57,877 bases of DNA from Gammaproteobacteria bacterium (GCA_011088265.1 JAALKB010000001.1:107576-165452), one strand, 5' to 3'; positions 7,910 to 28,869 are shown, counted from the stretch's first letter. The notes: generated from the sequence alone by a model not told the origin. Translations and numbers: made by a program.

Positions 7910-7959
7910 GCTTGGTTTCTTTTTGCGAAAATATCGAACAGGACCATTCTAAATCCGGT

Positions 7960-8023
7960 GGGGCGCGATTATACGTTTAAATACCTCTAATCGGCATCCC
8001 ATTTAGATGTAAAATCGCGCCCC
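7960..8023. repeat. long nested inverted repeat in the prfC/uup divergent spacer
   Basis: GGGGCGCGATT (7960-7970) pairs with AATCGCGCCCC (8013-8023). The inner arms ACGTTTAAAT / ATTTAGATGT match at 8 of 10 positions. Confidence 0.85.
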
Positions 8024-8068
8024 TGGACATACCCTATGTATTGACAATCCTTTATTCGTTAACCCCTA

Positions 8069-9967: not shown

Positions 9968-10010
9968 AGCGGGTAGATCCAACCAACTTTTTGCCAGTTG
10001 TTATACTAGG

Positions 10011-10892
10011 TTATTCAACAAAAGTCCGATCCAGCCATCCGCTTACCAGTTCGATCATTTGGTCTCCCTTTCCGGTGAAATAGTGATCAGCTCCCTCAAC
10101 AGATATTTGCTCAGAGTACTTATTTCCACCTTGATCTAACATCTTCCTACGTTCGGGCACCATTGCTAACGGCCTTGGGAATTCATCCGCACCATAAATA
10201 TCAAGCACTGGAACATTTATGTCAGCCAATGGGAAAGGTGTTTTCAGTTCTTGCCCCGCATCAGTTGCTCCTAGCCCCATCGCAACATATCCTTTGATCA
10301 AAGCATTTCCATTTGCATTCAACCAGTCATTCGTCATATGAGCGCCGCAGCTATGGGCCGCCAGAACAATCACGTCATGCCCTTCTTTCTTCAAAAAATC
10401 AATGGCTGTTTTGATTCTCTCGTGAGCATAGGACAATATGGGCAAATAGTCGTAATAGGTTTTTCCTTTTTCGAGCACAGGCATTTGAATCGCCAACGTA
10501 CTCCACCCCCTTTCTGACAACCCGACCCTTAACGGACCAATCAGATTTTGTTCTTCCGGATTAACATCTCTCCCATGCATGAGAACAACCGCTCCCACAG
10601 GATTATCTAAAGGGACATAGATGGAGAGGAAATCGTGGTCATTACCATGAAGCCATACCACTTCACCGTCAAAAAGTCCCGGCTCGATTTGTTCGGAAAT
10701 TCGAGCTTCACGCTCGAAATCAGGTGAAGAGGTAGCAGCTCCTTCTATAGCGAAACAGGAAAGGCAGAAAATCAACAGGAACTGCCATCGGCCAGGTTTT
10801 GTTTTTGCTAAAACCTTTGTTGTAGTTGTCGTTTTGATTGTCGTTGCGGTTATCATTTTGAATTTATTTCTGTCTGAGGAGAATAGAGCCAT
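10011..10892 (-). CDS. secreted alpha/beta-hydrolase-fold protein (DUF3530-like)
   Basis: 293 aa. Thr/Lys-rich N-terminus plus a hydrophobic segment. The nucleophile elbow is degenerate (AAHSCGA). Confidence 0.6.
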   Translation of the reverse strand: MALFSSDRNKFKMITATTIKTTTTTKVLAKTKPGRWQFLLIFCLSCFAIEGAATSSPDFEREARISEQIEPGLFDGEVVWLHGNDHDFLSIYVPLDNPVGAVVLMHGRDVNPEEQNLIGPLRVGLSERGWSTLAIQMPVLEKGKTYYDYLPILSYAHERIKTAIDFLKKEGHDVIVLAAHSCGAHMTNDWLNANGNALIKGYVAMGLGATDAGQELKTPFPLADINVPVLDIYGADEFPRPLAMVPERRKMLDQGGNKYSEQISVEGADHYFTGKGDQMIELVSGWLDRTFVE

Positions 10893-11258
10893 CGTAAAGC
10901 CAAAAGATAGAGCTAAAAAACGGCCACGTAATCTCTAATTCATATTAAGCCAGTATCGATCCAATACCGGAATTTTGCATTTGGTGCAAAGTGCTTTGGC
11001 ACGCATATCCCAAAATCCATATGATTGGCGGCCAATCTACCCAGCATGGCAAACACTAATAACCTCTTTGCGATATTCAAATCCCGTAAGCACTGGCTGA
11101 TAATTAGTCCCTCAACAAGCATGGTGCGAGTGGTTAGGCTTCATGTTCATTCTATCGGCCCATGCCGATTGATGTTGAGTTGTTGGTTTCGGTTTTGTTC
11201 AGTTCGTTAATTTCCACAGATTAGAAATCCGTTATCACTCCATTATCCTATATCTTGT

Positions 11259-13763: not shown

Positions 13764-14885
13764 ATGCGCTTTATTCGACTAGCACTATTCTGTTTTTCCA
13801 GATTGATGAATTCGTTCGCCAGAACTATCACCATAACGATGGTGTGTTGCATGGTAATACTTACGTTACCCTCCTTTTTTGCGACAGCAAATGCAAACAC
13901 AGACAAGGGAGTAGACACCTCATCGATACCACAGGGAAAATTCCTGGGGGCGAAACAAACTACCCATCCAGAGTGGTTTAAGGAGAGCTTCCTGGAATTT
14001 GAAGACGATATCGACGAAGCCACAATGGAAGGAAAACGGGTAGTATTATATTTTCATCAGGATGGCTGCCCTTACTGCAATTTACTAGTAGAAAAAAACT
14101 TCAACGACCCCCTGATCTCAGACAAGATTCGAAACAGATTTGATCTGATCGCGATCAATATGTGGGGAGATAAAGAGGTAGTTCAGGTTGGTGGCAGGAC
14201 TTTTACGGAAAAAACACTGGCAGCAGCCTTGTCTGTTAACTTTACACCCACTTTGTTATTCTTCACGGAAGATCGGGAAGTGGCACTCAGACTCGATGGT
14301 TATCATCCACCGGAGAAATTTGTCCACGCCCTTGACTACGTATCTGGAAAACAGGAGAAAATATCCACTTATCCTGCTTATCTCTCAAGGATCAATCAAA
14401 AGAGTGATGATGTTCCCCTCAATGAAAACCGATGGACCCGCTCTCCGCCTTTTGATTTGTCACAGTTAGGCGACAAACCCATCGCACTACTCTTTGAAGA
14501 GCCCAATTGCAGCTCTTGCAACTTACTTTACCAAAAGACATTTCAGGATCCGTCAGCAGAAGATTTGCTGGAACAGTTTCATGTGGTGCAATTAAACCGG
14601 TGGTCAAATACACCAATTACAAAACCGGATGGTAGTCCAACCACTGCCAAAGAGTGGGCAACGGAGCTTAACCTGGGATTTTCCCCTTCAATTGTTTTTT
14701 TCGATCAGCAAGGAACCAATGTGATGACCATTGACGCAATGTTCAAAACTTTCCACACCTTAGGTGTATTCGACTACATCGCATCAAAAACCTATCGCTC
14801 GGAGCCAAGCTTTCAAAGATACCTAACGGAACGTGCTGAGCACCTACGTAGCCTGGGACAGGATGTTGACATTTGGTCATATTGA
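13764..14885 (+). CDS. periplasmic protein with two SoxW/COG2143-type thioredoxin-fold modules
   Basis: GAGGTG RBS upstream of the ATG and a long hydrophobic N-terminus. Two modules carry CxxC motifs (DGCPYCNLL and PNCSSCNLL), each followed by a (T/S)P(T/S)-hydrophobic-FF strand (FTPTLLFF / FSPSIVFF). Confidence 0.72.
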   Translation: MRFIRLALFCFSRLMNSFARTITITMVCCMVILTLPSFFATANANTDKGVDTSSIPQGKFLGAKQTTHPEWFKESFLEFEDDIDEATMEGKRVVLYFHQDGCPYCNLLVEKNFNDPLISDKIRNRFDLIAINMWGDKEVVQVGGRTFTEKTLAAALSVNFTPTLLFFTEDREVALRLDGYHPPEKFVHALDYVSGKQEKISTYPAYLSRINQKSDDVPLNENRWTRSPPFDLSQLGDKPIALLFEEPNCSSCNLLYQKTFQDPSAEDLLEQFHVVQLNRWSNTPITKPDGSPTTAKEWATELNLGFSPSIVFFDQQGTNVMTIDAMFKTFHTLGVFDYIASKTYRSEPSFQRYLTERAEHLRSLGQDVDIWSY

Positions 14886-15005
14886 CTCCGTGATATAAAG
14901 GATAGCCAGTACTATCTGCTTACAAATTTAGCGCATCAACACTTGTCAATATATGCAAATGTATATTAAAGTTATTACATTGATTACTAAAGAGACAACA
15001 AAACG

Positions 15006-15704
15006 ATGACTGAACACGATCTGGCAAACTCCGACAGCCCTCAAAGGGCGCTATTGATCGGTCGCCCAGTCCCATCGTTTCAGGCACGGAGCACCCATGG
15101 GGACATCTCTTTAGAGGATTATCGAGGAAAATGGCTGGTTATGTTTTCCCACCCCGCTGACTTCACACCCGTTTGTACTTCTGAATTTATCGCGTTCCAA
15201 CGCTCAATTCACGAATTTGAAAACCGGAATTGTGCGCTGCTTGGACTCTCCGTCGACAGCATTTATTCACATGTCGCATGGGTTAAGAATATCCAGGAAA
15301 AATTTAATGTTGAGATTAGCTTCCCAATAGTCGAGGACATCTCCATGGCCGTCTCGTTCGCTTATGGAATGCTTGATGCTTCCTCTCAAAGCACGGCCAC
15401 GGTTAGAGCTGTATTTTTCATCGACCCATGCAGCATTCTTAGAGCGAAAATCATCTATCCCATGCAGGTAGGTAGGTCAATATCAGAAATCATTCGCACT
15501 TTAAGCGCTTTACAAGCTGCTGATGAGACGGGCATGTCCGCCGCGGAAGGCTGGCAACCCAACGAGCCTTTAACCCCGTTAGCACCTACCACGGTCTCTC
15601 AAGCTAACTCAGTGACAACTTCCAGCGAACACGCCGAATGGTATTACACAGAAAGAAAAGTCATTCCACCGAATGAGAACAAACCGTCCACTCGGAAACA
15701 CTAA
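15006..15704 (+). CDS. 1-Cys peroxiredoxin (Prx6-like) with a C-terminal extension
   Basis: 232 aa. Peroxidatic Cys context DFTPVCTSEF. Confidence 0.9.
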   Translation: MTEHDLANSDSPQRALLIGRPVPSFQARSTHGDISLEDYRGKWLVMFSHPADFTPVCTSEFIAFQRSIHEFENRNCALLGLSVDSIYSHVAWVKNIQEKFNVEISFPIVEDISMAVSFAYGMLDASSQSTATVRAVFFIDPCSILRAKIIYPMQVGRSISEIIRTLSALQAADETGMSAAEGWQPNEPLTPLAPTTVSQANSVTTSSEHAEWYYTERKVIPPNENKPSTRKH

Positions 15705-16172
15705 ATGCTAGCTAGTGAGAAAAAATTGGTGCATCACGAAGATAACACGCCGGGGCGCGACTGTGATCTCGACCAGCTGTGCAATACGTTGAAAGTGCTT
15801 GCCAATTCACAAAGGCTAAAAATACTTCGTCACCTACTCGATGGAGAAGCAGCAGTTGGAGAACTGGAATCCATGCTGGGACTAAAGCAACCCAACCTTT
15901 CTCATGAACTTCGAAAGCTCAGGGAGAGCGACATCGTTAAAACCCGGCGACAATCAAAGGTAATTTTTTATTCGATCTCTACTGAAAGCACTGAGAATAT
16001 GATTAGAAATGCCCTGAACCTCGACCCAAAAAGGGAAAGGCAACACCAACCCATTCTCTCTACAAATGAAACCATTAAAAACCCACTTCATTGGGAAAAA
16101 CAGGTTCACAACAGCCACTCCAATATGCCGAAAGAAGAATGCGGACACTTTCCCACCATACAATATCGTTAA
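15705..16172 (+). CDS. ArsR/SmtB-family transcriptional regulator (BigR/SoxR-like core, His/Cys-rich tail)
   Basis: Its ATG directly abuts the peroxiredoxin TAA. wHTH core LKVLANSQRLKILRHL...LSHELRKLRESDIVKTRRQSKVIFYSI. Cys at positions 20, 26 and 146. Confidence 0.9.
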   Translation: MLASEKKLVHHEDNTPGRDCDLDQLCNTLKVLANSQRLKILRHLLDGEAAVGELESMLGLKQPNLSHELRKLRESDIVKTRRQSKVIFYSISTESTENMIRNALNLDPKRERQHQPILSTNETIKNPLHWEKQVHNSHSNMPKEECGHFPTIQYR

Positions 16173-16197
16173 AAAATGCTCACATATGGAGAATATC

Positions 16198-16392
16198 ATG
16201 CCCCCCATACACCCAATAATTCCTGCCAGCGTTATGGTTTTTGTCATGCTGCTTACAACAGCTCCATTCGCTCATGCAGTTAACACTGACAGCGCATCTA
16301 CCATCTCTCATTCTCTATCCCATGATGTGCCGATTTCGATGCAGAGCGATAGCGAGGAAAATCCCGAAGAAGAGGAAGAACCCGACTGTTAG
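16198..16392 (+). CDS. 64-aa Sec-signal micro-protein, acidic, ending in a C-terminal Cys
   Basis: GGAG sits 6 nt upstream of the ATG at 16198. Hydrophobic h-region with an AHA-V cleavage-like site. The mature part of about 37 aa ends ...SEENPEEEEEPDC-stop. Same strand as arsR and the rhodanese gene, and lies between them. Confidence 0.45.
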   Translation: MPPIHPIIPASVMVFVMLLTTAPFAHAVNTDSASTISHSLSHDVPISMQSDSEENPEEEEEPDC

Positions 16393-16519
16393 AGTGGTCT
16401 AAGCAATATTCACAAGCATGTTGAAAACACACTGTTGAAGAGCGATATCCATCATGATACCTAAGATTTTTTCAATACCCGATTTTGTAACCAACTGATT
16501 AACCAACGAGGAAAATAAA

Positions 16520-17221
16520 ATGAAAATCCATAAATTAATAACCATAACTGCGCTCACAGCAGGGCTGAGTTTCAATGCATTAGCTGAAAATAAACCTGTA
16601 GGCATCACACCAGATATGATGTCCATAACGGTGACTCACAATGGCGAAGCTGTTGAAATAAAACGGAATCAGGATAATTCCAATACCGTCATTCCAGCTT
16701 TTGCCAAGACTTCACGGCATTGCCCTCCTTTTTGCATCCAGCCCATGTCCCTTGCCGAAGGCGTGGAGACCCTTGGAGAACTGGAAGTACTTGACTATGC
16801 GGCCAGGATGGAAGGTGGTGACAAGAGCATTCTTCTAATTGACTCCCGCACACCAGATTGGGTAGCGAAAGGCACCATTCCTAGCGCCGTCAATATTCCA
16901 TGGACAGAACTTGTACCCGCCAAAGGTGCAACAACAGAGGGTATTGTCAGTGTCATGAGAGACCAGTTCAATGTTAAAGTAGTGGAAGGGGCGGATGAAA
17001 TCGCGATTGACGATGCAATAGCAAACAATCAGGTATCGGAAGTATTCGATTATTCTGATGCGAGAACACTTGTTCTATTCTGCAATGGGATGTGGTGTGG
17101 TCAATCCCCAGCCAGCATTAAGACTCTCCTCAAATATGGCTACCCTGCGGAAAGCATCAAATGGTATCGCGACGGAATGCAATCCTGGGAAATTCTTGGT
17201 TTCAATACTGCAAAACCATAG
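16520..17221 (+). CDS. periplasmic rhodanese-domain sulfurtransferase
   Basis: GAGGAA RBS and a signal peptide (...SFNALA-ENK). CPPFC motif and a rhodanese active-site loop (FCNGMWCGQSP). Confidence 0.8.
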   Translation: MKIHKLITITALTAGLSFNALAENKPVGITPDMMSITVTHNGEAVEIKRNQDNSNTVIPAFAKTSRHCPPFCIQPMSLAEGVETLGELEVLDYAARMEGGDKSILLIDSRTPDWVAKGTIPSAVNIPWTELVPAKGATTEGIVSVMRDQFNVKVVEGADEIAIDDAIANNQVSEVFDYSDARTLVLFCNGMWCGQSPASIKTLLKYGYPAESIKWYRDGMQSWEILGFNTAKP

Positions 17222-17305: not shown

Positions 17306-17332
17306 AAGGGCGACGTAAGTCGCCCTTTTTTT
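17306..17332 (+). terminator. rho-independent terminator after the rhodanese gene
   Basis: AAGGGCGAC-gtaa-GTCGCCCTT followed by a T-run. It lies between convergent genes. Confidence 0.8.
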
Positions 17333-17343
17333 GCCCTAAACTG

Positions 17344-18111
17344 CTAAGGCAAAACTAGCTCGATTGGATATCCCACTTCGGGCAGAGGATTACTAGAAAC
17401 CACTTTAATCAGCGCGAACCCGGGACGGGTATACCTATCCACCGACTCCACACGACCACTAAAATGGTTAACCTGCCCCGACGCTTTAACGCGTAGTTCG
17501 AGCACCTCCCCGTTCTGCGGTACTGCCTGCTCACCTATTTGCATACTGATAGTCACAACTCTTTGCCTGGAACCAAGCAAGATGACTGGCAAATTAGCAG
17601 AATCAATAGCGATACGCTCACCGGCATGGAAACCAAGCCTGAGGACATCTCCATCCACCGGAGCAACGAGTCGAGTCTGTCCAAGTTCAAAACGACGTTT
17701 AGCATACTCCGCTTTTGCCTCATCCAATTCCATCATCGCCTGTAAAAAGGTCAGCTCGGATAGTTGGAGTTCTACCCGGGATAAAGAACCCTCCTCATAA
17801 AGAACAGTATCTCTTTCGAAAGATCGTTTGGACTCCTCAAGTTGGGCAGCAATCGCCACTTTTCTCGATTTGGCCGATTCGAGGGAAAAATAGACATGTT
17901 CATTTTTCAATTCTGCCAGCAAATCCCCTGCTTTCACTGCATCCCCGACCTTAACATGTACCTTTCCGATTTCTCCATCAACCCCCGGATTCAATTTATA
18001 AACATGCGCGAATTCGACACGCCCGGTAAAGTTATCAGCGTAGGGACTCCCTGAAAACCCAAAAAGAGCCATGGCTAAACAACAAAGTATCAACAATTTA
18101 TTATTTGTCAC
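17344..18111 (-). CDS. short periplasmic HlyD/membrane-fusion-like adaptor
   Basis: 255 aa. Cleavable signal, split lipoyl-like motif (GKVHVKVGDAVKAGDLLAEL ... VAPVDGDV), a coiled-coil hairpin and a beta-barrel. No membrane anchor. Confidence 0.7.
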   Translation of the reverse strand: MTNNKLLILCCLAMALFGFSGSPYADNFTGRVEFAHVYKLNPGVDGEIGKVHVKVGDAVKAGDLLAELKNEHVYFSLESAKSRKVAIAAQLEESKRSFERDTVLYEEGSLSRVELQLSELTFLQAMMELDEAKAEYAKRRFELGQTRLVAPVDGDVLRLGFHAGERIAIDSANLPVILLGSRQRVVTISMQIGEQAVPQNGEVLELRVKASGQVNHFSGRVESVDRYTRPGFALIKVVSSNPLPEVGYPIELVLP

Positions 18112-18179
18112 AATGAACTATACCTTCAATAAATTTCATATAAACCCAACCCTAAATAGATCGATTTCTGAGACAACGA

Positions 18180-19490
18180 TTAATTCAGATCACCCTCAGC
18201 AAAAGAAACACCTCCCAATAGCGCGCCAATCTCTTCCCAGACGAAAGCACGTTCGTATTCTGCTTTTTTCTGGCGATATAGCGCCTTTGCCACCTCAGCG
18301 TTCGCACTTCCAATACGCGCACGGACCTCCATTTCGTATTGCAGCCTCACTTTATCCAACTCCAACTCCCGATAAAGCAGTTCTGCCTTTGCCGCACCAA
18401 CTTCGCTATTTAGCACACCAAGTTTATGGACCAACTCTAGAACTTTTTCCCTCAGTCTATATTCCAGAGAATCCAACTCCGCCCTGGCCTTTTCGACCTG
18501 AATCTGTTGCTGCTCAATGTCCGCCTTCTTACGCAAACGTTGCCCAATTGGGATGTCCAAATAAACCACTGCGCGGTATTGGTCACGACTACCTGAGAAA
18601 TGTTCCGCATACTCGGTGCCCTGGACTTGCAAACCCAATGTCGGATCCCATTTTCGGGAAACCAGTAACAACCTCTGCTCCGCTTCCTCCAGGTTTAGTC
18701 TACCCCGGGCAATTGCTGGAGACTCGCTTAGAACTCTCGCGAAAAGCTCATCGTAGTCCGGCAACTCCCTTTCATAATTTGATAACAAAGGCTCCACCAC
18801 CTGGCTAGGAAAGGCGTTGGGTCTATTTAACACCAGCGCTAATCGTAAACGGCTCATCCGTTGGACATTGGCAGCCTCAAGCCGGCTCACCAGAAATGAC
18901 TGATACCGGGACTCTAGCCGGCGGACTTCTATTTCGGAGGTTTCTTCATATATATCCATACTATCTCGGGCGCGGTCAAAGGCCAGATACGATAGCGTCA
19001 TTTCCTCGTCTATGGCTGCATAACCATAATCGGCAATAATGACATCAAAAAAAGCACGAATAATATCGACCCTCATTTGTAAATGTGAACGGCGCTGATG
19101 CTCGGCTAATGCAGACATTCTGGTATCAATAATTTGATTAGACGCCGAATCACGCCCAAAACGACTGATAGGTTTATGAATAAAAATAGATATCCGGCTA
19201 TCGTCAACAAAATCGTGCCCCGGATCCATCAACCTATCCACCTGACGCCACTCCAACCTCATATCAACTTCTGTTCCCATTTCCGCTTTAAGCGATAACC
19301 TTTCCATCTCCGCCTTTTTGATTTCCAGGCCTGAGGTCCTAAGACGCGGATGCTTCTCATCCAACATGGAAAGTGCCTGAGCAAGCGTTAATCTCCGGGG
19401 AAAGGGCTGATCATCCGCCATCGCGATGCTGGAGGTGAATACAACGAACATGAATACGAATGACAGCAGAAGATTCATGGTCACAACCAT
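18180..19490 (-). CDS. TolC-family outer-membrane factor
   Basis: The ORF runs to 19646, but a signal peptide (MVVTMNLLLSFVFMFVVFTSSIAMA-DD) starts at the internal Met codons at 19490/19478. Two OEP-type repeats rich in coiled-coil sequence. Confidence 0.72.
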   Translation of the reverse strand: MVVTMNLLLSFVFMFVVFTSSIAMADDQPFPRRLTLAQALSMLDEKHPRLRTSGLEIKKAEMERLSLKAEMGTEVDMRLEWRQVDRLMDPGHDFVDDSRISIFIHKPISRFGRDSASNQIIDTRMSALAEHQRRSHLQMRVDIIRAFFDVIIADYGYAAIDEEMTLSYLAFDRARDSMDIYEETSEIEVRRLESRYQSFLVSRLEAANVQRMSRLRLALVLNRPNAFPSQVVEPLLSNYERELPDYDELFARVLSESPAIARGRLNLEEAEQRLLLVSRKWDPTLGLQVQGTEYAEHFSGSRDQYRAVVYLDIPIGQRLRKKADIEQQQIQVEKARAELDSLEYRLREKVLELVHKLGVLNSEVGAAKAELLYRELELDKVRLQYEMEVRARIGSANAEVAKALYRQKKAEYERAFVWEEIGALLGGVSFAEGDLN

Positions 19491-19661
19491 TGCAGACGCA
19501 AATGCAGACACTTGTGACGAAGTGGTACCTGGACTGCTGGAACGGTTTCCCAGCAATCGGAAACCAGTACCACCCACCCAGATACTCAGCGGTCCTAAAG
19601 AGATTCGTTTTTCATGAGGATTCATTTTATATAACAAACAATCCATTAACGGGAGATGTTT

Positions 19662-20243
19662 TTAACCGGGTTGGTTAGCACGGCGATATCGATTAAAGCG
19701 TTCGGTGTGATAGTGACCTTCCGTCACAAAGCGACCAAGCAAAAGAAAGTCATGCGCATTCTTTAACGCTCCTGTGTAACGGGTAATAAGGGAGCCCGAT
19801 GCATCGAAAAACGCGAATACCGGAGTTGCGCGTACGCGAAGCGACTTGAGCGCGAAATCTTTCGAAGTCATCTCTTCTCCGTTGAAATCCACAACGGGAA
19901 CATCTCCCTCAGCATCCACGCTAATCACCCTAAAATTTTCATGAAAGTAGTCCTGTACACTGACCCGGTTTAACACCTGTTGCTTCATTCTCATACACCA
20001 TGGGCAGTCTTTGGTTTCAAACATTATCAGAACGCCCTTCTTTCCTTCTTCTATTGCTATTGCCGCCTCTTCCTGCAAGTCCCCAAAAGAAACATCGAAA
20101 AAGGTATCGGCACCATCAGCGATATTATCTTCGGTTATTTGAGCGAGACCAGTATTCCAAATCGAAAACAGGGCAAGGACAACCAAAACAGTTACATTCC
20201 ATTCAATACTTTTTGCCGGCCCACCCAATCTGTTAATCTTCAT
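19662..20243 (-). CDS. periplasmic SoxW/COG2143-type thioredoxin-fold protein
   Basis: 193 aa. Signal/anchor segment, then KDCPWCMRM and ATPVFAFFD. First gene of a minus-strand trio with the TolC-like and HlyD-like genes. Confidence 0.75.
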   Translation of the reverse strand: MKINRLGGPAKSIEWNVTVLVVLALFSIWNTGLAQITEDNIADGADTFFDVSFGDLQEEAAIAIEEGKKGVLIMFETKDCPWCMRMKQQVLNRVSVQDYFHENFRVISVDAEGDVPVVDFNGEEMTSKDFALKSLRVRATPVFAFFDASGSLITRYTGALKNAHDFLLLGRFVTEGHYHTERFNRYRRANQPG

Positions 20244-20258
20244 CTATTTCGAACCCCT

Positions 20259-20288
20259 CGATAGTCTTAAATTCGATAGTCTTAAATT
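20259..20288. repeat. perfect tandem duplication, 15 bp x 2
   Basis: cgatagtcttaaatt twice in succession. Confidence 0.95.
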
Positions 20289-20327
20289 ACTTTCGCAAAA
20301 CCACAGCTCATTACACCAAACACCAAT

Positions 20328-20353
20328 CGGTGATAAAGATCGGCGATAAAGAT
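20328..20353. repeat. tandem duplication, 13 bp x 2 (1 mismatch)
   Basis: cggtgataaagat / cggcgataaagat. Confidence 0.9.
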
Positions 20354-20634
20354 CGATATTAGCCCCGATGAGACAATATTCACGGAGTAAGGATGAAATA
20401 GACCGCCTTACAAACCAGGAATAGGGCAGAAAACCAGAATTGACGCCTTCCTAATCAGACTCTTTATCCTATTTTGTTATAGGAGTTTAGCGACTAACCA
20501 GAACGATTATCAATAGCCCCTTGGCTTACCCAATATCCCCATTGCGCAATATGATCGTAATACTGCCTGTTATAGAATTAGGTCCAAATGACGCCAAAAT
20601 TAGCGTCAAAAACCGCACTTAGAACATCAATGCC

Positions 20635-22038
20635 GTGAAATATCTCCCTCTTCTGTTTGACATTACTGACAAACCCTGTCTGATTGTAGGCGGCGGAAAA
20701 ATAGCAACCCGAAGGGCCCAGAATATTTATAATGCAAATGCCCGTGTTGATGTTATCAGTGTCACAACAACGGACCAGATAGCCCAGATAGCCACGGAAT
20801 CAGGGGGTAAGGTTATCCTCCGATCATGGCATTCGAACGATATAAAGACATACTATCGATTTGTAGTTGCCGCAACAAATGATGAAAGAACTAATGTTAA
20901 GATTGCTGAAACATGCAAACAGCTTGGCATCCCTGTAAATGTTATCAGCGATTCAACGCTTTCTGACTTTTCGTTTCCTGCTGTCATCGATCGTGATCCT
21001 TTGACGATTACTGTTTCAAGTGGCAGCGCTTCCCCTATTCTAACGAAACTACTGGCTCAGCGCATTGATGCTTTGATTCCACAAGGTTATGGAAAACTCG
21101 CTACCTTAATCCGCAGATATCGCCATAAAATTAGAGAGAACATTCTGTCCCCTGGCAATCGCAAACTTTTTTGGGAAAGAGTTCTAACAGGGAACATTGC
21201 TGAACACATCTTTTCTGGCAACCAGTCTCGGGCGGAGGAGTTATTGCTAAAGTCCCTTACTGATCCCGAGAACACGACACCCAAAGGAGAGGTATACCTG
21301 GTTGGTGCTGGACCTGGAGACCCTGACCTATTAACGTTCCGAGCTTATAGATTGCTCCAACAGTCAGAGATTGTTCTTTATGATCGACTGGTATCGGAAA
21401 AAATTTTATCTCAGATTGGTTCGGACAAAAAAATGGTTTATGTTGGAAAACAACGATCAAACCACTCCGTCCCTCAAGGAGATATAAACCAGCTGCTGGT
21501 TGACTATGCTGTTGCCGGGAAAAGAGTTGCCCGTCTAAAGGGTGGGGATCCGTTTATTTTTGGCCGAGGCGGGGAAGAGATCGAGCTACTTGCTAGCAGA
21601 CAGATACCATTTCAGGTGGTACCGGGAATCACTGCCGCCTCTGGCTGTGCCAGCTATAGCGGAATTCCACTGACTCATAGGGATCATGCACAGTCAGTCA
21701 GGTTTGTCACTGGACAGTTGCAGGATGGAACCGTGGATCTTCCTTGGGACCAGCTTGTTGCACCGAACCAAACCGTTGTTATTTATATGGGATTAAATGG
21801 ATTACCTGCAATTTCGACAAACCTTATCCGCTACGGTATGAATTCAGAAACACCGGCGGCGATGATCGAGCAGGGAACCACCCTTGATCAAAAAGTCCAT
21901 ATTTCTACCATTGCAAAGCTACCAGACATGGTTGCCAGCCACTGCATCAGACCACCAACACTACTAATCGTTGGTAGTGTGGTATCGCTACACCACTCAC
22001 TCAATTGGTTCGGAAATTCATCTCCATCAAAGAAATAA
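20635..22038 (+). CDS. cysG: siroheme synthase (uroporphyrinogen-III methyltransferase / precorrin-2 dehydrogenase / ferrochelatase)
   Basis: 467 aa with a GTG start. N-terminal Rossmann motif (VGGGKIATRR) and the C-terminal methyltransferase motif GAGPGDPDLLT. Confidence 0.92.
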   Translation: MKYLPLLFDITDKPCLIVGGGKIATRRAQNIYNANARVDVISVTTTDQIAQIATESGGKVILRSWHSNDIKTYYRFVVAATNDERTNVKIAETCKQLGIPVNVISDSTLSDFSFPAVIDRDPLTITVSSGSASPILTKLLAQRIDALIPQGYGKLATLIRRYRHKIRENILSPGNRKLFWERVLTGNIAEHIFSGNQSRAEELLLKSLTDPENTTPKGEVYLVGAGPGDPDLLTFRAYRLLQQSEIVLYDRLVSEKILSQIGSDKKMVYVGKQRSNHSVPQGDINQLLVDYAVAGKRVARLKGGDPFIFGRGGEEIELLASRQIPFQVVPGITAASGCASYSGIPLTHRDHAQSVRFVTGQLQDGTVDLPWDQLVAPNQTVVIYMGLNGLPAISTNLIRYGMNSETPAAMIEQGTTLDQKVHISTIAKLPDMVASHCIRPPTLLIVGSVVSLHHSLNWFGNSSPSKK

Positions 22039-22074
22039 AAATCAACCATTTCAACTTCGAAAGAGGAGCATTTT

Positions 22075-22503
22075 ATGACGAGTTTCACTCCTATTCAATC
22101 CTTACTAGGCGGCATGCTAATTGGAACCGCCGTGATTATTTTAATGGCCTTTTTAGGCCGTATAGCTGGCTCCAGCGGAATCATCGGTAGCCTTCTACCC
22201 CCCAAATTGGCCAATGATAAAAGCTGGCGCATCGCCTTTTTAATCGGGTTGCTCATCGCTGCATTTCTATTGGATACGGTCGCCGATTATTCAGCCGTCA
22301 TTCAAAACATCACCACTGAGCCAATGCTAATCATAGGTGGGTTACTCGTTGGCATTGGCGTAACTCTCTCCTCTGGCTGCACTAGTGGACATGGTATATG
22401 CGGCCTGGCGCGCCTTTCCCCCCGATCCATTGCAGCCACTCTAACCTTCATGGCATCCACGGCTGTGACTGTTTTTATCGCCAAGCATTTAATAGGACAA
22501 TAA
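22075..22503 (+). CDS. YeeE/YedE-family membrane protein (half-size, sulfur transport)
   Basis: 142 aa and multi-pass. Conserved GCTSGHG(I)CG motif. Confidence 0.85.
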   Translation: MTSFTPIQSLLGGMLIGTAVIILMAFLGRIAGSSGIIGSLLPPKLANDKSWRIAFLIGLLIAAFLLDTVADYSAVIQNITTEPMLIIGGLLVGIGVTLSSGCTSGHGICGLARLSPRSIAATLTFMASTAVTVFIAKHLIGQ

Positions 22504-22505
22504 AC

Positions 22506-22922
22506 ATGATCATCATCATTTCATTACTTGCCGGGGTGATTTTTGGCTTCGGAATTCTGACTTCCGGAATGGCAAACCCTGCAAAAGTACAAAACTTTTT
22601 CGATGTAGCCGGTACATGGGACCCGAGTCTAGCGTTTGTCATGGGTGGAGCGCTGCTTATCACAACACCGGGTTACTACCTCATTCTTAAGATGAACAAA
22701 CCCTTGCTCGCCGAAAAATTCAATCTATCCACGAATAAGAAAATAGACTCTACACTGATCATTGGCTCTATCATCTTTGGCATAGGTTGGGGCATTACTG
22801 GGTATTGTCCCGGTGCAGTATTACCCGCAGTAGGGACAGGTAATCATAGCGCTCTACTTTTTTGTGTTGCTATGGCGACGGGGATGATGGCAGCCCGATT
22901 AATTCGAAGCAGGACTCTCTAG
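22506..22922 (+). CDS. YeeE/YedE-family membrane protein (second half-size subunit)
   Basis: ATG at 22506, 3 nt after the previous stop. Hydrophobic, with a GYCPG motif. The longer ORF starting at 22398 overlaps the previous gene and is rejected. Confidence 0.85.
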   Translation: MIIIISLLAGVIFGFGILTSGMANPAKVQNFFDVAGTWDPSLAFVMGGALLITTPGYYLILKMNKPLLAEKFNLSTNKKIDSTLIIGSIIFGIGWGITGYCPGAVLPAVGTGNHSALLFCVAMATGMMAARLIRSRTL

Positions 22923-23025
22923 GGACTGTTGACATTCGGCAATAAAAAAACATCAGATTAACTCATAGAACTTCTCTCGATCCTGCAACTATCGTAAAGA
23001 CCAAATTCAGATTGAAACTCACCCA

Positions 23026-23898
23026 ATGAACATACTTACCAAGCCAGAGGTTACCGGTTTTTTTGATAAAGACACAAACACCGTCAGCTACGTTGTAAGA
23101 GACCCTACGTCACAATCCTGCGCGGTCATCGATTCTGTCACAGATCTAGACTACGCTGCGGGACGAATCCATTACCAATCAGCGAACCAGATTATTGAAC
23201 ATATCAGTCAAAATGACCTGATACTGGAATGGATAATTGAAACTCATGCCCATGCAGATCACCTATCTGCTGCTCCATATATACAGGAAAAGCTCGGGGG
23301 GAAAATTGGAATTGGACAAAAAATTACCATGGTTCAGAAAGCATTTGGGCAGGTTTTCGGAAATAGTGAGCAATTTCGAACCGACGGCAGTCAATTTGAT
23401 CGACTGTTCTCTAACAACGATTCCTATGAGATTGGAAACATGAAAGCCGTTGCCATTTCGACTCCCGGGCACACCCCTGCGTGCATGAGCCATGTTATCG
23501 GTGATGCCATTTTCGTGGGAGATACTATTTTTATGCCAGATGGTGGCACAGCAAGAGTTGACTTTCCGGGAGGAGACGCCCGCCAGTTATTCCAGTCAAT
23601 TCAGAGAATCCTTTCTTACCCCGAAGAAACCCGACTGTTTGTTTGCCATGATTATGGACCAAATGGGCGCGATTTTAGATGGCAAACATCTGTCAGAGAG
23701 CAAAGAGAAAATAGCATTCATGTTAGAGATAATATGACAGAGGAAGAATTTATCACCATTCGGACTGAGCGTGATAAGCAGCTCGGCATGCCGAAGCTTA
23801 TCATTCCTTCAATTCAGGTGAATATTCGGGCTGGACATCTACCTGAAAAAGATCCGGGGGGTACCCGATTCATTAAAGTTCCCCTTAATGTTTTATGA
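23026..23898 (+). CDS. MBL-fold hydrolase, persulfide-dioxygenase (Blh/ETHE1)-like
   Basis: 290 aa. ETHAHADHLS metal motif and GHTPAC. The context matches H2S-detoxification operons. Confidence 0.78.
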   Translation: MNILTKPEVTGFFDKDTNTVSYVVRDPTSQSCAVIDSVTDLDYAAGRIHYQSANQIIEHISQNDLILEWIIETHAHADHLSAAPYIQEKLGGKIGIGQKITMVQKAFGQVFGNSEQFRTDGSQFDRLFSNNDSYEIGNMKAVAISTPGHTPACMSHVIGDAIFVGDTIFMPDGGTARVDFPGGDARQLFQSIQRILSYPEETRLFVCHDYGPNGRDFRWQTSVREQRENSIHVRDNMTEEEFITIRTERDKQLGMPKLIIPSIQVNIRAGHLPEKDPGGTRFIKVPLNVL

Positions 23899-23983
23899 TT
23901 TCTTCCTACAGGATAAGAACGTAGAACAACACAAAATCGGGGAACCACTGGTGTGATAGTCGCTCTAACAGGCGTACAAATCC

Positions 23984-24568
23984 TTGATTATTGGCAACAT
24001 GAAACGACACCTACCTGCATACATAAAACGGATTAGCTCCCGTCTCTGGATGTGCCTCTTTATTACTCTTTCAGGTGAGGCGCAATCAGACCAGGAAGCA
24101 CTGGGGAAGATCCATAACTGGATCAAGAATGAACATCCATTTGTCAACCACATTCAAGGAGAGCGGTTAGAATCAAAATTGGGCGATGATTCAAGCCTTG
24201 TACTGTTTGATGTGAGAGAGCAGTCCGAGTACGAAATTAGCCATCTTCAAAATGCAATCCGGGTTGATCCGGATATTAGCGCGAAAGAGTTCGGTGAACT
24301 TTACGGATCAAACCTCATGAATAAGACAGTAATATTTTATTGTTCGGTTGGAAGAAGATCATCAGTACTTGCAGAAAAAGTACAAAAGCAGCTTTTGGAA
24401 CAGGGTTCAACTCGGGTACTAAATCTGGAAAATGGGATATTTGGCTGGCACAATGAAACCAGAAAACTAACGCGGGGAACTGATGAAACCGAATTTGTCC
24501 ATCCTTATAGCTGGCGCTGGGGAAGGCTCATTGAGCGCGAGGATTTAATTCGGTACGACCTGGACTAA
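23984..24568 (+). CDS. rhodanese-domain protein
   Basis: 194 aa. Active-site loop YCSVGRRSS. An alternative start lies at 23999. Confidence 0.8.
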   Translation: MIIGNMKRHLPAYIKRISSRLWMCLFITLSGEAQSDQEALGKIHNWIKNEHPFVNHIQGERLESKLGDDSSLVLFDVREQSEYEISHLQNAIRVDPDISAKEFGELYGSNLMNKTVIFYCSVGRRSSVLAEKVQKQLLEQGSTRVLNLENGIFGWHNETRKLTRGTDETEFVHPYSWRWGRLIEREDLIRYDLD

Positions 24569-24571
24569 ACG

Positions 24572-24973
24572 TTAACGACTACCCACCAGAGTAATCGCTT
24601 TTTCGATGGATTTCTCAAGATAATAACCATAATAGTCCGGGGTCATTAACCCAACCATTCGTTCAACCAATTCGTTTTTTTCATCGTCAATGAAAATCAC
24701 AGTTGGTGTGAAATCTGAATCGTAAGCAGAAAGAAAATCTCTGGTCGAGATTACCCGACCACCTTTATCGATAATGGTTTCACCCGCGTCAATGGAGACT
24801 TTAGCAAAGATCGCCCGATCTGCAAATTCTCCACTGGAAATAATCGCTGCAAAAAACTCACCTTCCACCCGTCGACAATATGGGCAATCAGATTGGTCTA
24901 CCATGAGCACCACTGGCTGGCTGGTTTCTTTCGCGAGTTTCGATATGGCTTGCCAATTTTCTGCTATTCTCAT
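24572..24973 (-). CDS. cytoplasmic SoxW/COG2143-type thioredoxin-fold protein
   Basis: 133 aa with no signal peptide. SDCPYCRRV and FTPTVIFID, the same module as at 13764, 14400 and 19662. Confidence 0.75.
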   Translation of the reverse strand: MRIAENWQAISKLAKETSQPVVLMVDQSDCPYCRRVEGEFFAAIISSGEFADRAIFAKVSIDAGETIIDKGGRVISTRDFLSAYDSDFTPTVIFIDDEKNELVERMVGLMTPDYYGYYLEKSIEKAITLVGSR

Positions 24974-24991
24974 TTAGATACTATCGAATGT

Positions 24992-25087
24992 GTTAGTCAG
25001 TTCACAAAGGAAGCGATAAAAAGGGCGTTGACTCTCACCAACACCCTTCGTCTAGACTGGCAGCAAGCCAATTAGAAACTGACTAAC
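24992..25087. repeat. nested inverted repeat between the small helical ORF and the thioredoxin-like gene
   Basis: GTTAGTCAGTT (24992-25002) pairs with AACTGACTAAC (25077-25087), 11 of 11 positions. Inner arms AAGGGCGTTG-actctcac-CAACACCCTT match at 9 of 10. Confidence 0.85.
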
Positions 25088-25116
25088 TGCCCAGCAAGGT
25101 TTTGAGGGTAATTGAC

Positions 25117-25359
25117 CTATTGAGGAACCCTCGCCTGCCACAAGCCCCCTTCACGCTCATGCTGAGCCACAGCATCAGAGGCTTGTTCATGGGCTTTCGC
25201 TACTAATTTCACTGCCTCTTCATTCTCACCAGCTTCATTAGCAGCTTTCGCTTTTTTCAGGAGCTTTTTGGTATCTCTCCATTCAAAACCTAATTTAGCG
25301 GCGGCCTGGCGTTGTTCATCAGCGGCTTTCCATGAAGCTTCAAATTCATCACTTGCCAT
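25117..25359 (-). CDS. small Ala/Lys/Glu-rich helical protein of unknown function
   Basis: 80 aa counted from the ATG that overlaps the soxB stop (ATGGCAAGTGA). The ORF extends to 25437 with a weak signal-like prefix. Composition is low-complexity helical. Confidence 0.4.
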   Translation of the reverse strand: MASDEFEASWKAADEQRQAAAKLGFEWRDTKKLLKKAKAANEAGENEEAVKLVAKAHEQASDAVAQHEREGGLWQARVPQ

Positions 25360-26992
25360 GGCGCTGGAAATCAACCCCTCGGACCATGTCGCCCCCAGAT
25401 TGAAAATAGGGATCTGGATCAAATAGATTATCAGCAACTGATTCGAGTACGGTTAGCAAATTTTCCCCGGTCATGTCCTGAACATAGGTCTCGCCATAGG
25501 TCATAGCCGTCTGGGTCATAACATCTTCCATGGTAATCCATTCCCCCGATAACACACTGGTACCCCAACGAAATCCGGGGGACAACGAAATATCTGCTCC
25601 ATATTCATGCCGAATTGCGTCACAAATAAGCTGATCCCAGGTGCCCATAAAATTCCCTCTTCGAAACAGAACCCGGTCAGACTTCGCCAATTTTTCTGTC
25701 AGAATAGCGTCATATTTCCGGCCAAGACGAAGTGGATTTACCTCAAACGCCTCGGCACGGGACTCGATCACCTGATCATCATAAGCCTGCCCTCTCAATG
25801 TAGAAATAAAGCTGGCGACTCCGGGATCAGCATCAAGTAGTTTTTCGAATACGGGGACCAGGTGATACTGCATTCCTTTAACTTCACCTTCATCAATATC
25901 AAAGTCCATCACACCAACAAATTTTCCATTGGTTCCCGCATTTGTGACCATGCACGTTCCGCCATCAGGGGTAGTCACATTAATTGGGACCGGAACGCCA
26001 TCATGAGTGTGTCCACCAAAAATAGCATCAATGCCATTGACTCTGGATGCGAGTTTTAAATCCACGTCCATTCCATTATGAGACAAGAGGATAATAGCGT
26101 CCGGAGCTTCTGTTTCCTGGATGGTATGAACCAATGCAATCATCTCTTCTTCCCTTATTCCAAATGACCAGTCAGGAAAAAAGCCCTGGGGATTAGCATT
26201 GGCTGTACGTGGGAAAGCCTGTCCTATAACGCATATTTTTCTTCCAGCAATAACACGGGATGTGTATGGTTTGAATGCTATCCCTTCGTCTTCATCAAAC
26301 AATCCCAACCCACCATATCTATCTGTCATCTCAAAATAGGAATCATCAAATAAGCTGTCTTCCTTAATCCGAATATTTTGGCTCAGAAACTCACCCTTGA
26401 AGCGCTTGAGATTGGCAAGAAACTCCTCCTCGTGATAGGTAAACTCCCAATGGCCCGTCATAATATTCACATCAAGCAGATTGGAGGCATCGACCATATC
26501 CACTCCCCGGGTCCAAAGCGCAGTAGCCGATCCCTGCCATAAATCGCCTCCATCCATAGTAAGCGTATTCTCAATACCTCCCGCCTGAGCCCGCATTCGA
26601 TCAAGTAGTGTTTTTATCTGGGCAAACCCTCCCATCCGACCATATTTCCGCGCATTGGTCTCAAAGTCCAGATTGGTATACGCATAGGATTCGATGCTGC
26701 CCGGTTCAATTCCAGCTCTATCCAACAGGGCTCTTCCTACAAGATGGGGGAGCTGTCCCTTAGCCTCGCCTACGCCAAGGTTAACATTGGGTTCCCGGTA
26801 GTAAACCGGTAGCAGCTGGGCATGGGTGTCTGTGGTGTGAAGCACTCGGACACTCCCCTTTATGGGAATATCGTATAGAGTTTCCAGGCTTTCCGCATTG
26901 GCCAATTCAAGAATATCATTGCGTACGGCCAGGGTACCTGTTGCAGCGAAACCAATCAATTTCAAGATAGTTCTTCGATTAAGTTTTGTCAT
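25349..26992 (-). CDS. soxB: thiosulfohydrolase SoxB (apparently C-terminally truncated)
   Basis: Tat signal (NRRTILK), metallophosphoesterase motifs (HTTDTHAQ, GGHTHD) and a 5'-nucleotidase C-domain. The ORF stops 8 codons after the conserved GGDMVR motif. Confidence 0.85.
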   Translation of the reverse strand: MTKLNRRTILKLIGFAATGTLAVRNDILELANAESLETLYDIPIKGSVRVLHTTDTHAQLLPVYYREPNVNLGVGEAKGQLPHLVGRALLDRAGIEPGSIESYAYTNLDFETNARKYGRMGGFAQIKTLLDRMRAQAGGIENTLTMDGGDLWQGSATALWTRGVDMVDASNLLDVNIMTGHWEFTYHEEEFLANLKRFKGEFLSQNIRIKEDSLFDDSYFEMTDRYGGLGLFDEDEGIAFKPYTSRVIAGRKICVIGQAFPRTANANPQGFFPDWSFGIREEEMIALVHTIQETEAPDAIILLSHNGMDVDLKLASRVNGIDAIFGGHTHDGVPVPINVTTPDGGTCMVTNAGTNGKFVGVMDFDIDEGEVKGMQYHLVPVFEKLLDADPGVASFISTLRGQAYDDQVIESRAEAFEVNPLRLGRKYDAILTEKLAKSDRVLFRRGNFMGTWDQLICDAIRHEYGADISLSPGFRWGTSVLSGEWITMEDVMTQTAMTYGETYVQDMTGENLLTVLESVADNLFDPDPYFQSGGDMVRGVDFQRHGK

Positions 26993-27108
26993 AGGAAGTT
27001 TCTAATTCGACTAATTTAAAATGAGAATAGGCTATTTTAGGATACTATCAGAGTTGCATTAGGCCAGAGTTGATAGGAGCTGTTTTCACTTCCAACTCTC
27101 GACCCTTA

Positions 27109-27136
27109 CCTTACCTTCTCAACCTTACCTTCTCAA
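27109..27136. repeat. perfect tandem duplication, 14 bp x 2
   Basis: ccttaccttctcaa twice, preceded by a partial ccttac. Confidence 0.95.
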
Positions 27137-27442
27137 ACCTACTTTAATCAGGCCAAGGAATTGTATCTTCCTTTATGGATATAGTGACTCTAGCGTCATT
27201 ATCCCCGTGAGATATCGCACCGATCCGTTTCGCTGTATAGAATACATTCAGAATATGAAAATTCTGGCATTCAGATTGTTAGCACCCCAGCACATAAAAA
27301 CCGCTGTTACAAAGAATTGCTTTCTTTATTTGGTCTACTCGTCTACTAATATCATCAATTGGCCATCAAATTAGCCATCAATTGATAATGCCCTGAAATT
27401 CATATCATCCTTAATACTTAACAAAATTTAAAGATCAACAAC

Positions 27443-27673
27443 ATGACTGAAGCCAATCAGGAACTAGATGCCAGAAATCTGAATTGCCCTCTTCCTATTT
27501 TGAAGGCAAAAAAAACCATTAACAAAATGGAATCCGGTCAGGTTTTAAGAATTCTTGCCACGGATCCAGGCTCGGTCAAAGACTTCGAAGCCTTTGCCAG
27601 ACAAACCGGCAACGAATTGCTTGAGTCAACAGAGTCTGGCGATGAATTTCATTTTTTGCTGCAAAAAAAGTGA
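27443..27673 (+). CDS. tusA: TusA-family sulfurtransferase
   Basis: 76 aa. Conserved LNCPLPILKAKK (CPxP) motif. Confidence 0.9.
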   Translation: MTEANQELDARNLNCPLPILKAKKTINKMESGQVLRILATDPGSVKDFEAFARQTGNELLESTESGDEFHFLLQKK

Positions 27674-27738
27674 CTAAACACTCAACACTGAATTGGAAAT
27701 CATGTGAACCACATTTTCCTCAATATCCGGAGTAACCC

Positions 27739-28869
27739 GTGGAACTTGAACATTATCAACAAATAGCCCTTTACGGATTTATCGGTGCACTTATCTTGGG
27801 TGCCATCGCAAGCCGAACTCAATTTTGTACCATGGGAGCGGTTAGTGACTGGATTAACATGGATTCACTAACTCGAATGCGTGTTTGGTTTCTCGCCATA
27901 GGAGTGGCTATTTTAGGAACTCAGGCAATGCATTTGAGCGGTATGATTGATCTTAGAGAATCGATTTATCTAAATACAAACTTCACATGGTTAGGACATA
28001 TTCTGGGAGGATTTATCTTTGGCGTCGGGATGACTATGGCATCAGGCTGCGGGCAGCGAACATTGGTCAGATTAGGCGGCGGAAACTTGAAATCGCTGGT
28101 TGTCTTTCTGGTGATGGGAATTACCGCCTATGCAACTCTAAGGGGGCTGTTCGCTCTGATTCGTTTAGAGATAAATGGACCCACAACCGTCGATCTCACC
28201 GAAACAGGCCTCACTACTCAGGGTCTTCCAGGACTTCTTGGTTACCTCACAGGCATTTCCGCTGAACTCGCAGGTTTCATTTGTGTGGTTGTCATTGCTG
28301 GAGGTGCCATCGCCTTCTCCCTTCGGGATAGTGAAGTATGGAAACAATTCGATAATCTGCTAGCGGGGATAGGCATTGGCCTAATTATAGTAGGTGCCTG
28401 GTATACAACCGGTGTATTGGGATACGATGATTTTGACCCCCTACAACTAGAAGCAGCTTCTTTTATCGCTCCAGTTGGAAATTCAATTAGCTACGTGATG
28501 ACCTATACTGGTTCAAGTATCAATTTTGGCATTGCCGTGGTTTTTGGGCTAGTTGCCGGCGCGTTCCTCTACAGCATTGTTTCCGGCACTTTTCGTTTGG
28601 AAAGCTTTAGTGACAAAAATGATTTCATCAATCACTTTATCGGCGCCATCATGATGGGGTTCGGTGGAGTACTTGGACTAGGTTGTACTATTGGACAAGG
28701 TGTTAGTGGAGTATCCACTCTCGCCATTGGCTCAATAATTACGCTAATATTCATCATTACAGGATCTGTTTTTGCATTAAAAATGCAATACTATCTGTAC
28801 GATGATCTTGGCTGGAAATATGCTTTGAAATCTACATTAAGAGATGCGATTCCACACGCAAGAGATTAA
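27739..28869 (+). CDS. yeeE: full-length YeeE/YedE-family (thiosulfate/sulfur-compound) transporter
   Basis: 376 aa with a GTG start. Multi-pass, with conserved Cys motifs FCTMGA, SGCGQR and LGCTIGQG. Directly downstream of tusA. Confidence 0.88.
   Translation: MELEHYQQIALYGFIGALILGAIASRTQFCTMGAVSDWINMDSLTRMRVWFLAIGVAILGTQAMHLSGMIDLRESIYLNTNFTWLGHILGGFIFGVGMTMASGCGQRTLVRLGGGNLKSLVVFLVMGITAYATLRGLFALIRLEINGPTTVDLTETGLTTQGLPGLLGYLTGISAELAGFICVVVIAGGAIAFSLRDSEVWKQFDNLLAGIGIGLIIVGAWYTTGVLGYDDFDPLQLEAASFIAPVGNSISYVMTYTGSSINFGIAVVFGLVAGAFLYSIVSGTFRLESFSDKNDFINHFIGAIMMGFGGVLGLGCTIGQGVSGVSTLAIGSIITLIFIITGSVFALKMQYYLYDDLGWKYALKSTLRDAIPHARD

Follow-up and report, generated by a model that had tools for sequence, protein, structure and literature searches.

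Three adjacent genes on the minus strand of a 57,877-nucleotide stretch of DNA from a gammaproteobacterium (GCA_011088265.1, JAALKB010000001.1:107576-165452; the whole stretch is hereafter called the window) encode a thioredoxin-fold protein, a TolC-family outer-membrane factor (OMF) and a short adaptor of the membrane-fusion type. We are highly confident that this trio is a real, conserved unit and that no pump is encoded beside it. It forms one self-contained envelope module, inherited as a unit in sulfur-oxidising Gammaproteobacteria, and is probably a previously undescribed route from the periplasm to the outside that is tied to thiol chemistry. In textbook systems, a TolC-type duct serves only as the outermost part of an energised pump in the inner membrane. 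A duct with a docking-competent adaptor, no pump and a CxxC thioredoxin would, if our reading is correct, embody a different operating principle, in which the periplasm feeds the channel and redox chemistry is coupled to it. The three genes are as follows.

19662..20243, minus strand: thioredoxin gene (trx), open reading frame (ORF) of 193 residues, first gene of the unit
18180..19646, minus strand: gene for the TolC-family outer-membrane factor (omf), longest ORF 488 residues
17344..18111, minus strand: short adaptor gene, ORF of 255 residues

A preliminary description of the window had placed three co-directional minus-strand genes here and had seen no inner-membrane pump with them. Both observations hold: the ORFs are found at exactly these coordinates, and a scan of all sizeable ORFs in the 57.9-kb window revealed no RND, MFS or ABC exporter. 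The only ABC proteins encoded in the window are an ABC-F factor and a betaine-type importer.

Conservation of the unit was assessed in a genome scan anchored on the OMF and using one genome per species, which retrieved 139 relatives. The best 80 loci were analysed together with some 10 kb on either side, ORFs being called anew and the trio genes recognised with three profile hidden Markov models. The thioredoxin gene lies directly upstream of the OMF gene in 73 of these loci and two genes away in three more (76/80), while an adaptor of about 250 residues is encoded directly downstream of the OMF in 61. The junctions between trio genes are frequently 4-nt overlaps. All of the adaptors of 249-256 residues that were looked up (25-49% identical) have an OMF gene directly upstream; the full trio is present at P0002, P0003, P0005, P0153, P0116 and P0028, and only the OMF is visible at P0010, a 1-kb contig.

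Pumps were sought at the 80 loci among genes -6 to +8, as multi-spanning proteins or as proteins with Walker or signature motifs. No RND pump, nor any multi-transmembrane protein above 900 residues, lies within this range, and a single ABC exporter was encountered (at L085). No FUSC gene adjoins the trio at any of the trio loci. The membrane proteins that do recur nearby are BrkB/YihY (at variable distance), UPF0114, a rhomboid, a 7-TM protein encoded on the opposite strand and DsbD. The preliminary description had allowed that homologous trios might always adjoin a pump in other genomes, making the present arrangement the product of a local rearrangement; the 80 genome loci, with no RND pump and a single ABC exporter within the range examined, rule this out.

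The hosts of these loci belong almost entirely to sulfur-oxidiser lineages of the Gammaproteobacteria, with one betaproteobacterial bin. They comprise Ca. Poriferihabitaceae sponge symbionts (the nearest relatives of the window), Thiohalomonadaceae, Thiogranum, Acidiferrobacteraceae, Sedimenticolaceae, Ectothiorhodospiraceae including Thioalkalivibrio denitrificans, Halothiobacillaceae including Thiofaba, Woeseiaceae, Granulosicoccaceae and Arenicellales. Not all carriers are metagenome bins: at least two, Thioalkalivibrio denitrificans ALJD and Thiofaba sp. EF100, are named strains. The thioredoxin and OMF genes come directly after soxZ, soxA (TIGR04484), an unassigned gene and soxB (TIGR04486, 817 bits) in about 14 genomes of Arenicellales, among them L026, L032, L033, L035-L039, L045, L047, L049, L050 and L058 (positions about 5800-11200). 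The sulfur link drawn in the preliminary description is thereby upheld in part: the hosts, the Arenicellales sox loci and the neighbours in the window's own clade support it circumstantially, but most other loci are without sox neighbours. In the clade of the window, the trio has been relocated to a sulfur island.

In most lineages the typical operon reads tlpA-trx-omf-adaptor-acyP. The commonest upstream neighbour, directly preceding the thioredoxin gene at 23-25 loci, is a TlpA/ResA-like gene whose product bears a signal and a WCPPC motif. At 20 loci the adaptor gene is followed by an acylphosphatase gene (acyP), mostly with a 4-nt overlap with the adaptor stop. Genes of the DsbD system also occur 3' of the adaptor, as cutA-dsbD-tlpA at L007/L008 and L068, as cutA-dsbD at L048 and as dsbD-tlpA at L076; the window itself has no DsbD or CcdA gene. 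The acylphosphatase is cytoplasmic, about 89 residues long and without a signal peptide (L025, L027, L041, L042, L057, L059, L070, L071, L081, L083 and L084), and we offer no explanation for its translational coupling to a periplasmic module.

The adaptor scores 97.9 bits, above the cut-off, against the TIGR01730 (RND_mfp) model, of which it covers only positions 16-212 of 322. Its AlphaFold2 model (predicted local distance difference test score, pLDDT, 93.9) passes in order through a first barrel strand, one lipoyl half, the hairpin, the second lipoyl half and the β-barrel, at which the chain ends. The hairpin helices span residues 71-106 (36 residues) and 112-144 (33 residues). Foldseek matches it best to the parts of MacA, MexA and AcrA that hold these three domains (for example 2f1m, TM-scores 0.75/0.85). 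Since the model ends after the barrel and its matches are to three-domain parts, the adaptor is read as having no membrane-proximal domain; sequence and model likewise contain no lipobox and no transmembrane anchor. Its N-terminus reads as a Sec signal, ending in …SGSPYA before DN, and an A-x-A type signal site is found in most members of a 30-sequence alignment of relatives. These results bear out the earlier picture of a soluble 255-residue adaptor with lipoyl, hairpin and barrel domains and neither membrane-proximal domain nor anchor. That it might be a lipoprotein was considered and rejected: the LILCC in the signal segment is unlike a lipobox, and other family members do not conserve the cysteine.

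With the adaptor as query, a full HMMER search against 1.84 billion cluster representatives gave 11,217 hits, each standing for a cluster at 50% identity. A word-indexed search had given only two proteins. Among the best 150 of the 11,217 hits, about 107 are 240-270 residues long. The members of the 30-sequence alignment share a common start, comprising the signal and first barrel strand, and a common C-terminal end. They also share a conserved block, ERDxxLY(D/E)EGSLSxVEL, at the hairpin tip. Within it the window's adaptor displays the motif R100-x3-L104-x6-S111, the residues of which are invariant or nearly so in the alignment. This R-x3-L-x6-S spacing is that of the ‘RLS’ motif, with which canonical adaptors dock on the OMF aperture and open it; in AcrA (R128/L132/S139) and MacA (R131/L135/S142) its residues contact the aperture of TolC. 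In strict form the motif is found in 44 of the 61 orthologous adaptors, and 50 of the 61 are cysteine-free when mature. Relatives of 278-283 residues belong to other subfamilies, one of AaeA/FUSC type (283 residues, from Vibrio) and one stand-alone.

The OMF matches the Pfam OEP family in two stretches (1.5e-20). An AlphaFold2 model of a single protomer, built on 45 homologues (pLDDT 90.3), adopts the canonical TolC topology, with two repeats of a helix, two strands and a 69-residue helix. Foldseek comparison of this model with TolC, CusC and OprM gives TM-scores of 0.70-0.77, that to TolC being about 0.75. The earlier assignment to the TolC family is in agreement with the OEP match, the modelled fold and this similarity. 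As modelled, the protein carries the full TolC architecture, one of the features of a tripartite system. The mature part contains no lipobox and no cysteine, and is cysteine-free in 79 of 80 orthologues.

Upstream of its signal-like segment, which ends in AMA before DD (residue 77/78) and leaves a mature protein of about 411 residues, the OMF reading frame contains some 50 N-terminal residues that are not conserved in relatives. The start is uncertain for this reason, and probably lies within the 488-residue ORF; none of the candidate start codons inspected has a clear ribosome-binding site. The N-terminal extension (window 19415-19646) is also seen in a 63%-identical homologue at L001. Tip 1 of the OMF (residues 179-186 of a 436-residue construct) was compared across L015-L094. 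A glycine at this tip (consensus ELGQVSD) is present at 50 of 62 adaptor-bearing loci and at 0 of 17 adaptor-less ones. We draw no conclusion about glycine and adaptor presence, because the window's clade has the tip sequence YEETSE, without glycine, and yet has the adaptor. The pattern may reflect lineage-specific co-evolution of docking surfaces.

The thioredoxin matches Pfam Thioredoxin_2 (1.4e-17), and its CPWC active site lies behind a signal-like N-terminus, in keeping with its earlier description as a periplasmic thioredoxin-fold protein. It is 44-74% identical to the thioredoxins in the same position at L001, L011, L006 and L007, and ends in a conserved basic tail, RYRRANQPG. Among the 76 orthologues, 75 retain the motif CP[FWY]C.

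When compared with RND pumps such as AcrAB-TolC, MexAB-OprM and CusCBA, the trio shares the TolC-fold OMF, the hairpin-lipoyl-barrel adaptor, the R-x3-L-x6-S tip and a hairpin of AcrA/MexA length. It differs in that, across 80 species, neither the operon nor the 10 kb or so around it encodes an RND transporter, that the adaptor has neither membrane-proximal domain nor lipid anchor, and that a CPxC thioredoxin is its constant extra gene. We do not file it as a tripartite pump because both the transporter and the inner-membrane-facing parts of the adaptor are absent. Functional three-domain adaptors without the membrane-proximal domain do exist, namely EmrA (MFS), HlyD (type I secretion) and AaeA (FUSC/PET). 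These, however, possess an N-terminal transmembrane anchor and have their transporter adjacent, and the hairpins of EmrA and HlyD are much longer, whereas the trio's adaptor starts with a signal peptide that looks cleavable, its hairpin is short and its gene has no transporter gene beside it.

In concept, the closest likeness is to CusF-CusB-CusC, where a small soluble periplasmic protein is encoded with an adaptor and an OMF, and the cargo is periplasmic. Cus nevertheless needs CusA and the proton-motive force, and CusF is a Met/His copper binder rather than a CxxC thioredoxin. The thioredoxin itself resembles SoxW/SoxS and the DsbD/CcdA(SoxV)-dependent TlpA and CcmG/ResA proteins in its secreted CPxC thioredoxin fold, and genes like dsbD and tlpA stand in several of the operons. 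In the Arenicellales it directly follows soxB, where soxW stands in some sox clusters. In the window, by contrast, soxB is adjoined by another thioredoxin, of 133 residues. We know of no Sox thioredoxin coupled to an OMF, nor did the searched literature contain one.

A full-text literature search found no description of the thioredoxin-OMF-adaptor arrangement; for the thiocyanate dehydrogenase gene neighbourhood of PMC6504805, sameness with it is not demonstrated. The parts of the trio are of known families (TolC/OMF, membrane-fusion-type adaptor and thioredoxin fold). Database entries name the proteins ‘efflux RND transporter periplasmic adaptor subunit’, ‘TolC family protein’, ‘outer membrane protein TolC’ or ‘hypothetical protein’. 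Automated annotation of the pump type is misleading for these genes.

How might such a module work? All three products carry export signals, and the modelled adaptor keeps the parts that face the OMF and lacks those that face the inner membrane. A ring of adaptors could dock tip-to-tip on the OMF trimer and hold or gate the duct open. The lower end of the duct would then be free in the periplasm, where cargo would enter, to exit down its gradient without ATP or proton-motive force. Only about eight residues separate the adaptor's signal segment from its first strand and its hairpin is of AcrA length, so that it would be unable both to dock on the OMF tip and to reach the inner membrane; this geometry would leave the lower rim of the assembly open to the periplasm. 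The AcrAB-TolC and MacAB-TolC structures, on which the argument draws, are well established.

The thioredoxin would be kept reduced via DsbD/TlpA, often encoded in the same operon, so that the link to the cytoplasm would consist of electrons and not of a pump. At the duct entrance it would reductively free, or hand over, a thiol-, disulfide- or persulfide-bound cargo. That it maintains cysteines of the duct proteins is ruled out, mature OMF and adaptor being essentially cysteine-free, and its target is therefore something else. The lineages of the hosts and the nearby sox and rhodanese genes would make sulfane sulfur or polysulfide from Sox/rhodanese chemistry the most plausible cargo. We put forward this mechanism as a whole, an adaptor-opened, periplasm-fed duct with a thioredoxin step, tentatively, as a good possibility rather than a probability, and rate any specific cargo lower. 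In its most specific form, zero-valent sulfur or polysulfide would be exported independently of any pump and driven by thiol-disulfide chemistry, the DsbD/TlpA-fed thioredoxin cleaving sulfane sulfur from SoxY, a rhodanese or a protein with a C-terminal cysteine at the mouth of the duct; this we consider decidedly doubtful. Were it true, such a sulfur export duct would be the step still missing for many sulfur oxidisers, the one that places sulfur outside the cell or clears reactive sulfur from the periplasm. The trio is accordingly a testable candidate for the passage of reactive or zero-valent sulfur across the outer membrane, with carriers that range over sponge symbionts, Thioalkalivibrio, Halothiobacillus, Thiogranum, Woeseiaceae and Arenicellales and that include some with a sox-linked locus.

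Several points weigh against this proposal. The identity of the cargo and the direction of transport are purely inferred. For periplasm-fed export a porin would suffice, and a 100-Å TolC barrel with an adaptor is not obviously needed; some gating must also be assumed, as the outer membrane would leak through a duct that never closed. In 17 loci, mostly of Arenicellales, no adaptor is found within about 21 kb even at E<10, which implies that the adaptor is dispensable or replaced in some lineages and leaves the thioredoxin-OMF pair as the most constant core. The setting in most lineages is one of housekeeping genes (proS, slt, LysM, DUF4398 and acylphosphatase) without sulfur genes, so a general envelope role fits as well as a sulfur role. 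About 20 kb were inspected per genome, placing a distant pump outside the view. Signal peptides were judged by eye rather than by a predictor (for the adaptor, from the sequence and the alignment of 30 relatives), and the sequencing runs that carry the window are DNA metagenomes from sponges only, with no RNA runs among them. In the adaptor-less Arenicellales loci, the OMF gene is followed by a glutamine synthetase/glutamate synthase-like cluster.

The plainest alternative is that OMF and adaptor belong, as its outer components, to an ordinary tripartite pump whose RND, ABC, MFS or FUSC transporter is encoded elsewhere, the thioredoxin being an accessory or simply co-located. E. coli tolC is encoded apart from its pumps, the adaptor passes a generic family cut-off and keeps the RLS tip motif, the 283-residue AaeA-type Vibrio relative, also lacking the membrane-proximal domain, adjoins a FUSC gene, and our view of each genome was a limited one. 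Adaptor genes, however, almost always stand with their transporter, and none does so at the 61 adaptor-bearing loci; the membrane-proximal domain and anchor that are missing are the very parts that contact or approach the pump; and the OMF is most tightly partnered by the thioredoxin (76/80), not by a transporter. On balance we think a distant pump unlikely, though it has to be taken seriously. Much the same standing belongs to a role in envelope redox or metal homeostasis, handling Cu(I), another thiophilic metal or metalloid, or oxidised thiols, with the thioredoxin as reductase or chaperone. Analogy with CusF-CusB-CusC and with the cutA-dsbD and Scs copper-tolerance loci speaks for it, as do cutA-dsbD after the adaptor (with tlpA in some) at L007, L008, L048, L068 and L076, the frequency of the TlpA/ResA-like gene upstream, the housekeeping rather than sulfur-island surroundings at most loci, and, in the window, the adjacent genes for a peroxiredoxin and a regulator of ArsR/SmtB type. 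Yet the recovered carriers are almost exclusively of sulfur-oxidiser lineages, in Arenicellales the sox operon runs on into the thioredoxin and OMF genes, the recurrent neighbours at the 80 loci include neither a metal-binding protein nor a metal pump, and adjacency to DsbD/TlpA is equally expected for any periplasmic reductase.

A third reading makes the duct an exporter, or a means of display, for a cysteine-containing peptide or protein that is kept reduced, the candidate being a small secreted protein ending in EEEEEPDC (below), or for the thioredoxin itself. Unfolded proteins do pass through TolC ducts during type I secretion, this small C-terminal-cysteine protein adjoins the trio in the window's clade, and a thioredoxin that keeps the cargo cysteine reduced would fit. 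But the gene is confined to the window, L011, L016 and L018-L020 and absent from the other approximately 70 loci, there is no ABC/C39 exporter to energise protein export, and the candidate cargo, having a signal peptide, is already exported by Sec; we consider this reading very improbable. There remains the thought, raised in the preliminary description, that the adaptor is a truncated pseudogene of a full-length membrane-fusion protein, or that the trio is a chance juxtaposition from local rearrangement. The adaptor is indeed about 100 residues shorter than typical RND adaptors, but its length of some 250 residues and its C-terminus are conserved over more than 100 clusters at 50% identity, its three-domain model is confident, and the gene order is kept in 61-76 of 80 species. 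The pseudogene is ruled out on these grounds, and the whole explanation has practically no chance of being right. The pump-less, thiol-linked route from periplasm to outside is the reading that we prefer. The surroundings of the trio in the window are set out below.

Both flanks are as first described, a convergent rhodanese gene on one side and a non-coding region of about 390 bp (391 bp as measured) on the other.

17306..17327: G+C-rich hairpin AAGGGCGAC-GTAA-GTCGCCCTT, a terminator-like site of 9 pairs at the point where the adaptor and rhodanese genes converge
20244..20634: 391 bp of non-coding DNA that separate the thioredoxin gene from the divergent cysG

To judge from its sequence, the hairpin is likely to be the terminator of the trio; together with the converging rhodanese gene, it leaves no room for a further gene 3' of the adaptor. 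The 391-bp stretch is presumed to be the promoter and regulatory region of the trio. Just before the thioredoxin gene it contains two direct repeats in tandem, perfect or nearly so, TCGATAGTCTTAAAT twice (15 nt, 20258-20287) and ATCGG(T/C)GATAAAG twice (13 nt, 20326-20351), which may be binding sites of a regulator. Neither repeat is kept in related loci, alignment of the upstream non-coding regions with those of related loci revealed no conserved motif, and an Rfam search of the window matched no family.

Converging on the trio is a block of plus-strand genes (13764..17221).

13764-14885, plus strand: secreted double-thioredoxin protein
15006-15704, plus strand: peroxiredoxin (Pfam/NCBIfam)
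15705-16172, plus strand: ArsR regulator, BigR-like
16198-16392, plus strand: small acidic secreted protein ending EEEEEPDC, no Pfam match
16520-17221, plus strand: secreted rhodanese of 233 residues, converging on the adaptor gene

The block is kept in L011/L012, though the adaptor there is only 30% identical. Its rhodanese, small protein and double thioredoxin recur among L016, L018, L019, L020 and L029, where the peroxiredoxin and ArsR genes were not individually identified. It is possible that the block is a functional partner of the trio; it is not part of the universally conserved unit. The EEEEEPDC protein is also encoded at L011 (10349-10588), L016 (14632-14901), L018 (14644-14913), L019 (5498-5854) and L020 (13051-13386), with the C-terminal variants EEEDPEC and DEEPEC, and always between the ArsR gene and that for the 233-residue rhodanese. 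By analogy with the C-terminal cysteines of SoxY and DsrC, it could serve as an arm that carries sulfur in the periplasm.

The sulfur island occupies the opposite flank of the trio.

20635-28869: sulfur island, starting with cysG
22075-22503: one member of a split YeeE/YedE-type pair, the other being the DUF6691 gene (ORF ending 22922)
23026-23898: Blh-like persulfide dioxygenase
23984-24568: rhodanese
24572-24973: 133-residue thioredoxin, abutting soxB and different from the thioredoxin of the trio
25349-26992: soxB (TIGR04486, 645 bits, cut-off 550)
27739-28869: TusA and a full-length YeeE/TsuA-like transporter

The distance between the trio and soxB is about 5 kb. Elsewhere, genes for an OmpA-family protein, a DUF6627 protein and a secreted Peptidase_C39_2/TPR protein lie on the same strand upstream of the thioredoxin gene in one lineage (L067, L074 and L078). 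On a Ca. Poriferihabitaceae chromosome (L006, 11523-20762), the trio is followed by a YcaO gene, two methyltransferase genes and C39-peptidase ABC exporters. This cluster resembles those for ribosomally made, modified peptides and is probably unrelated to the trio.

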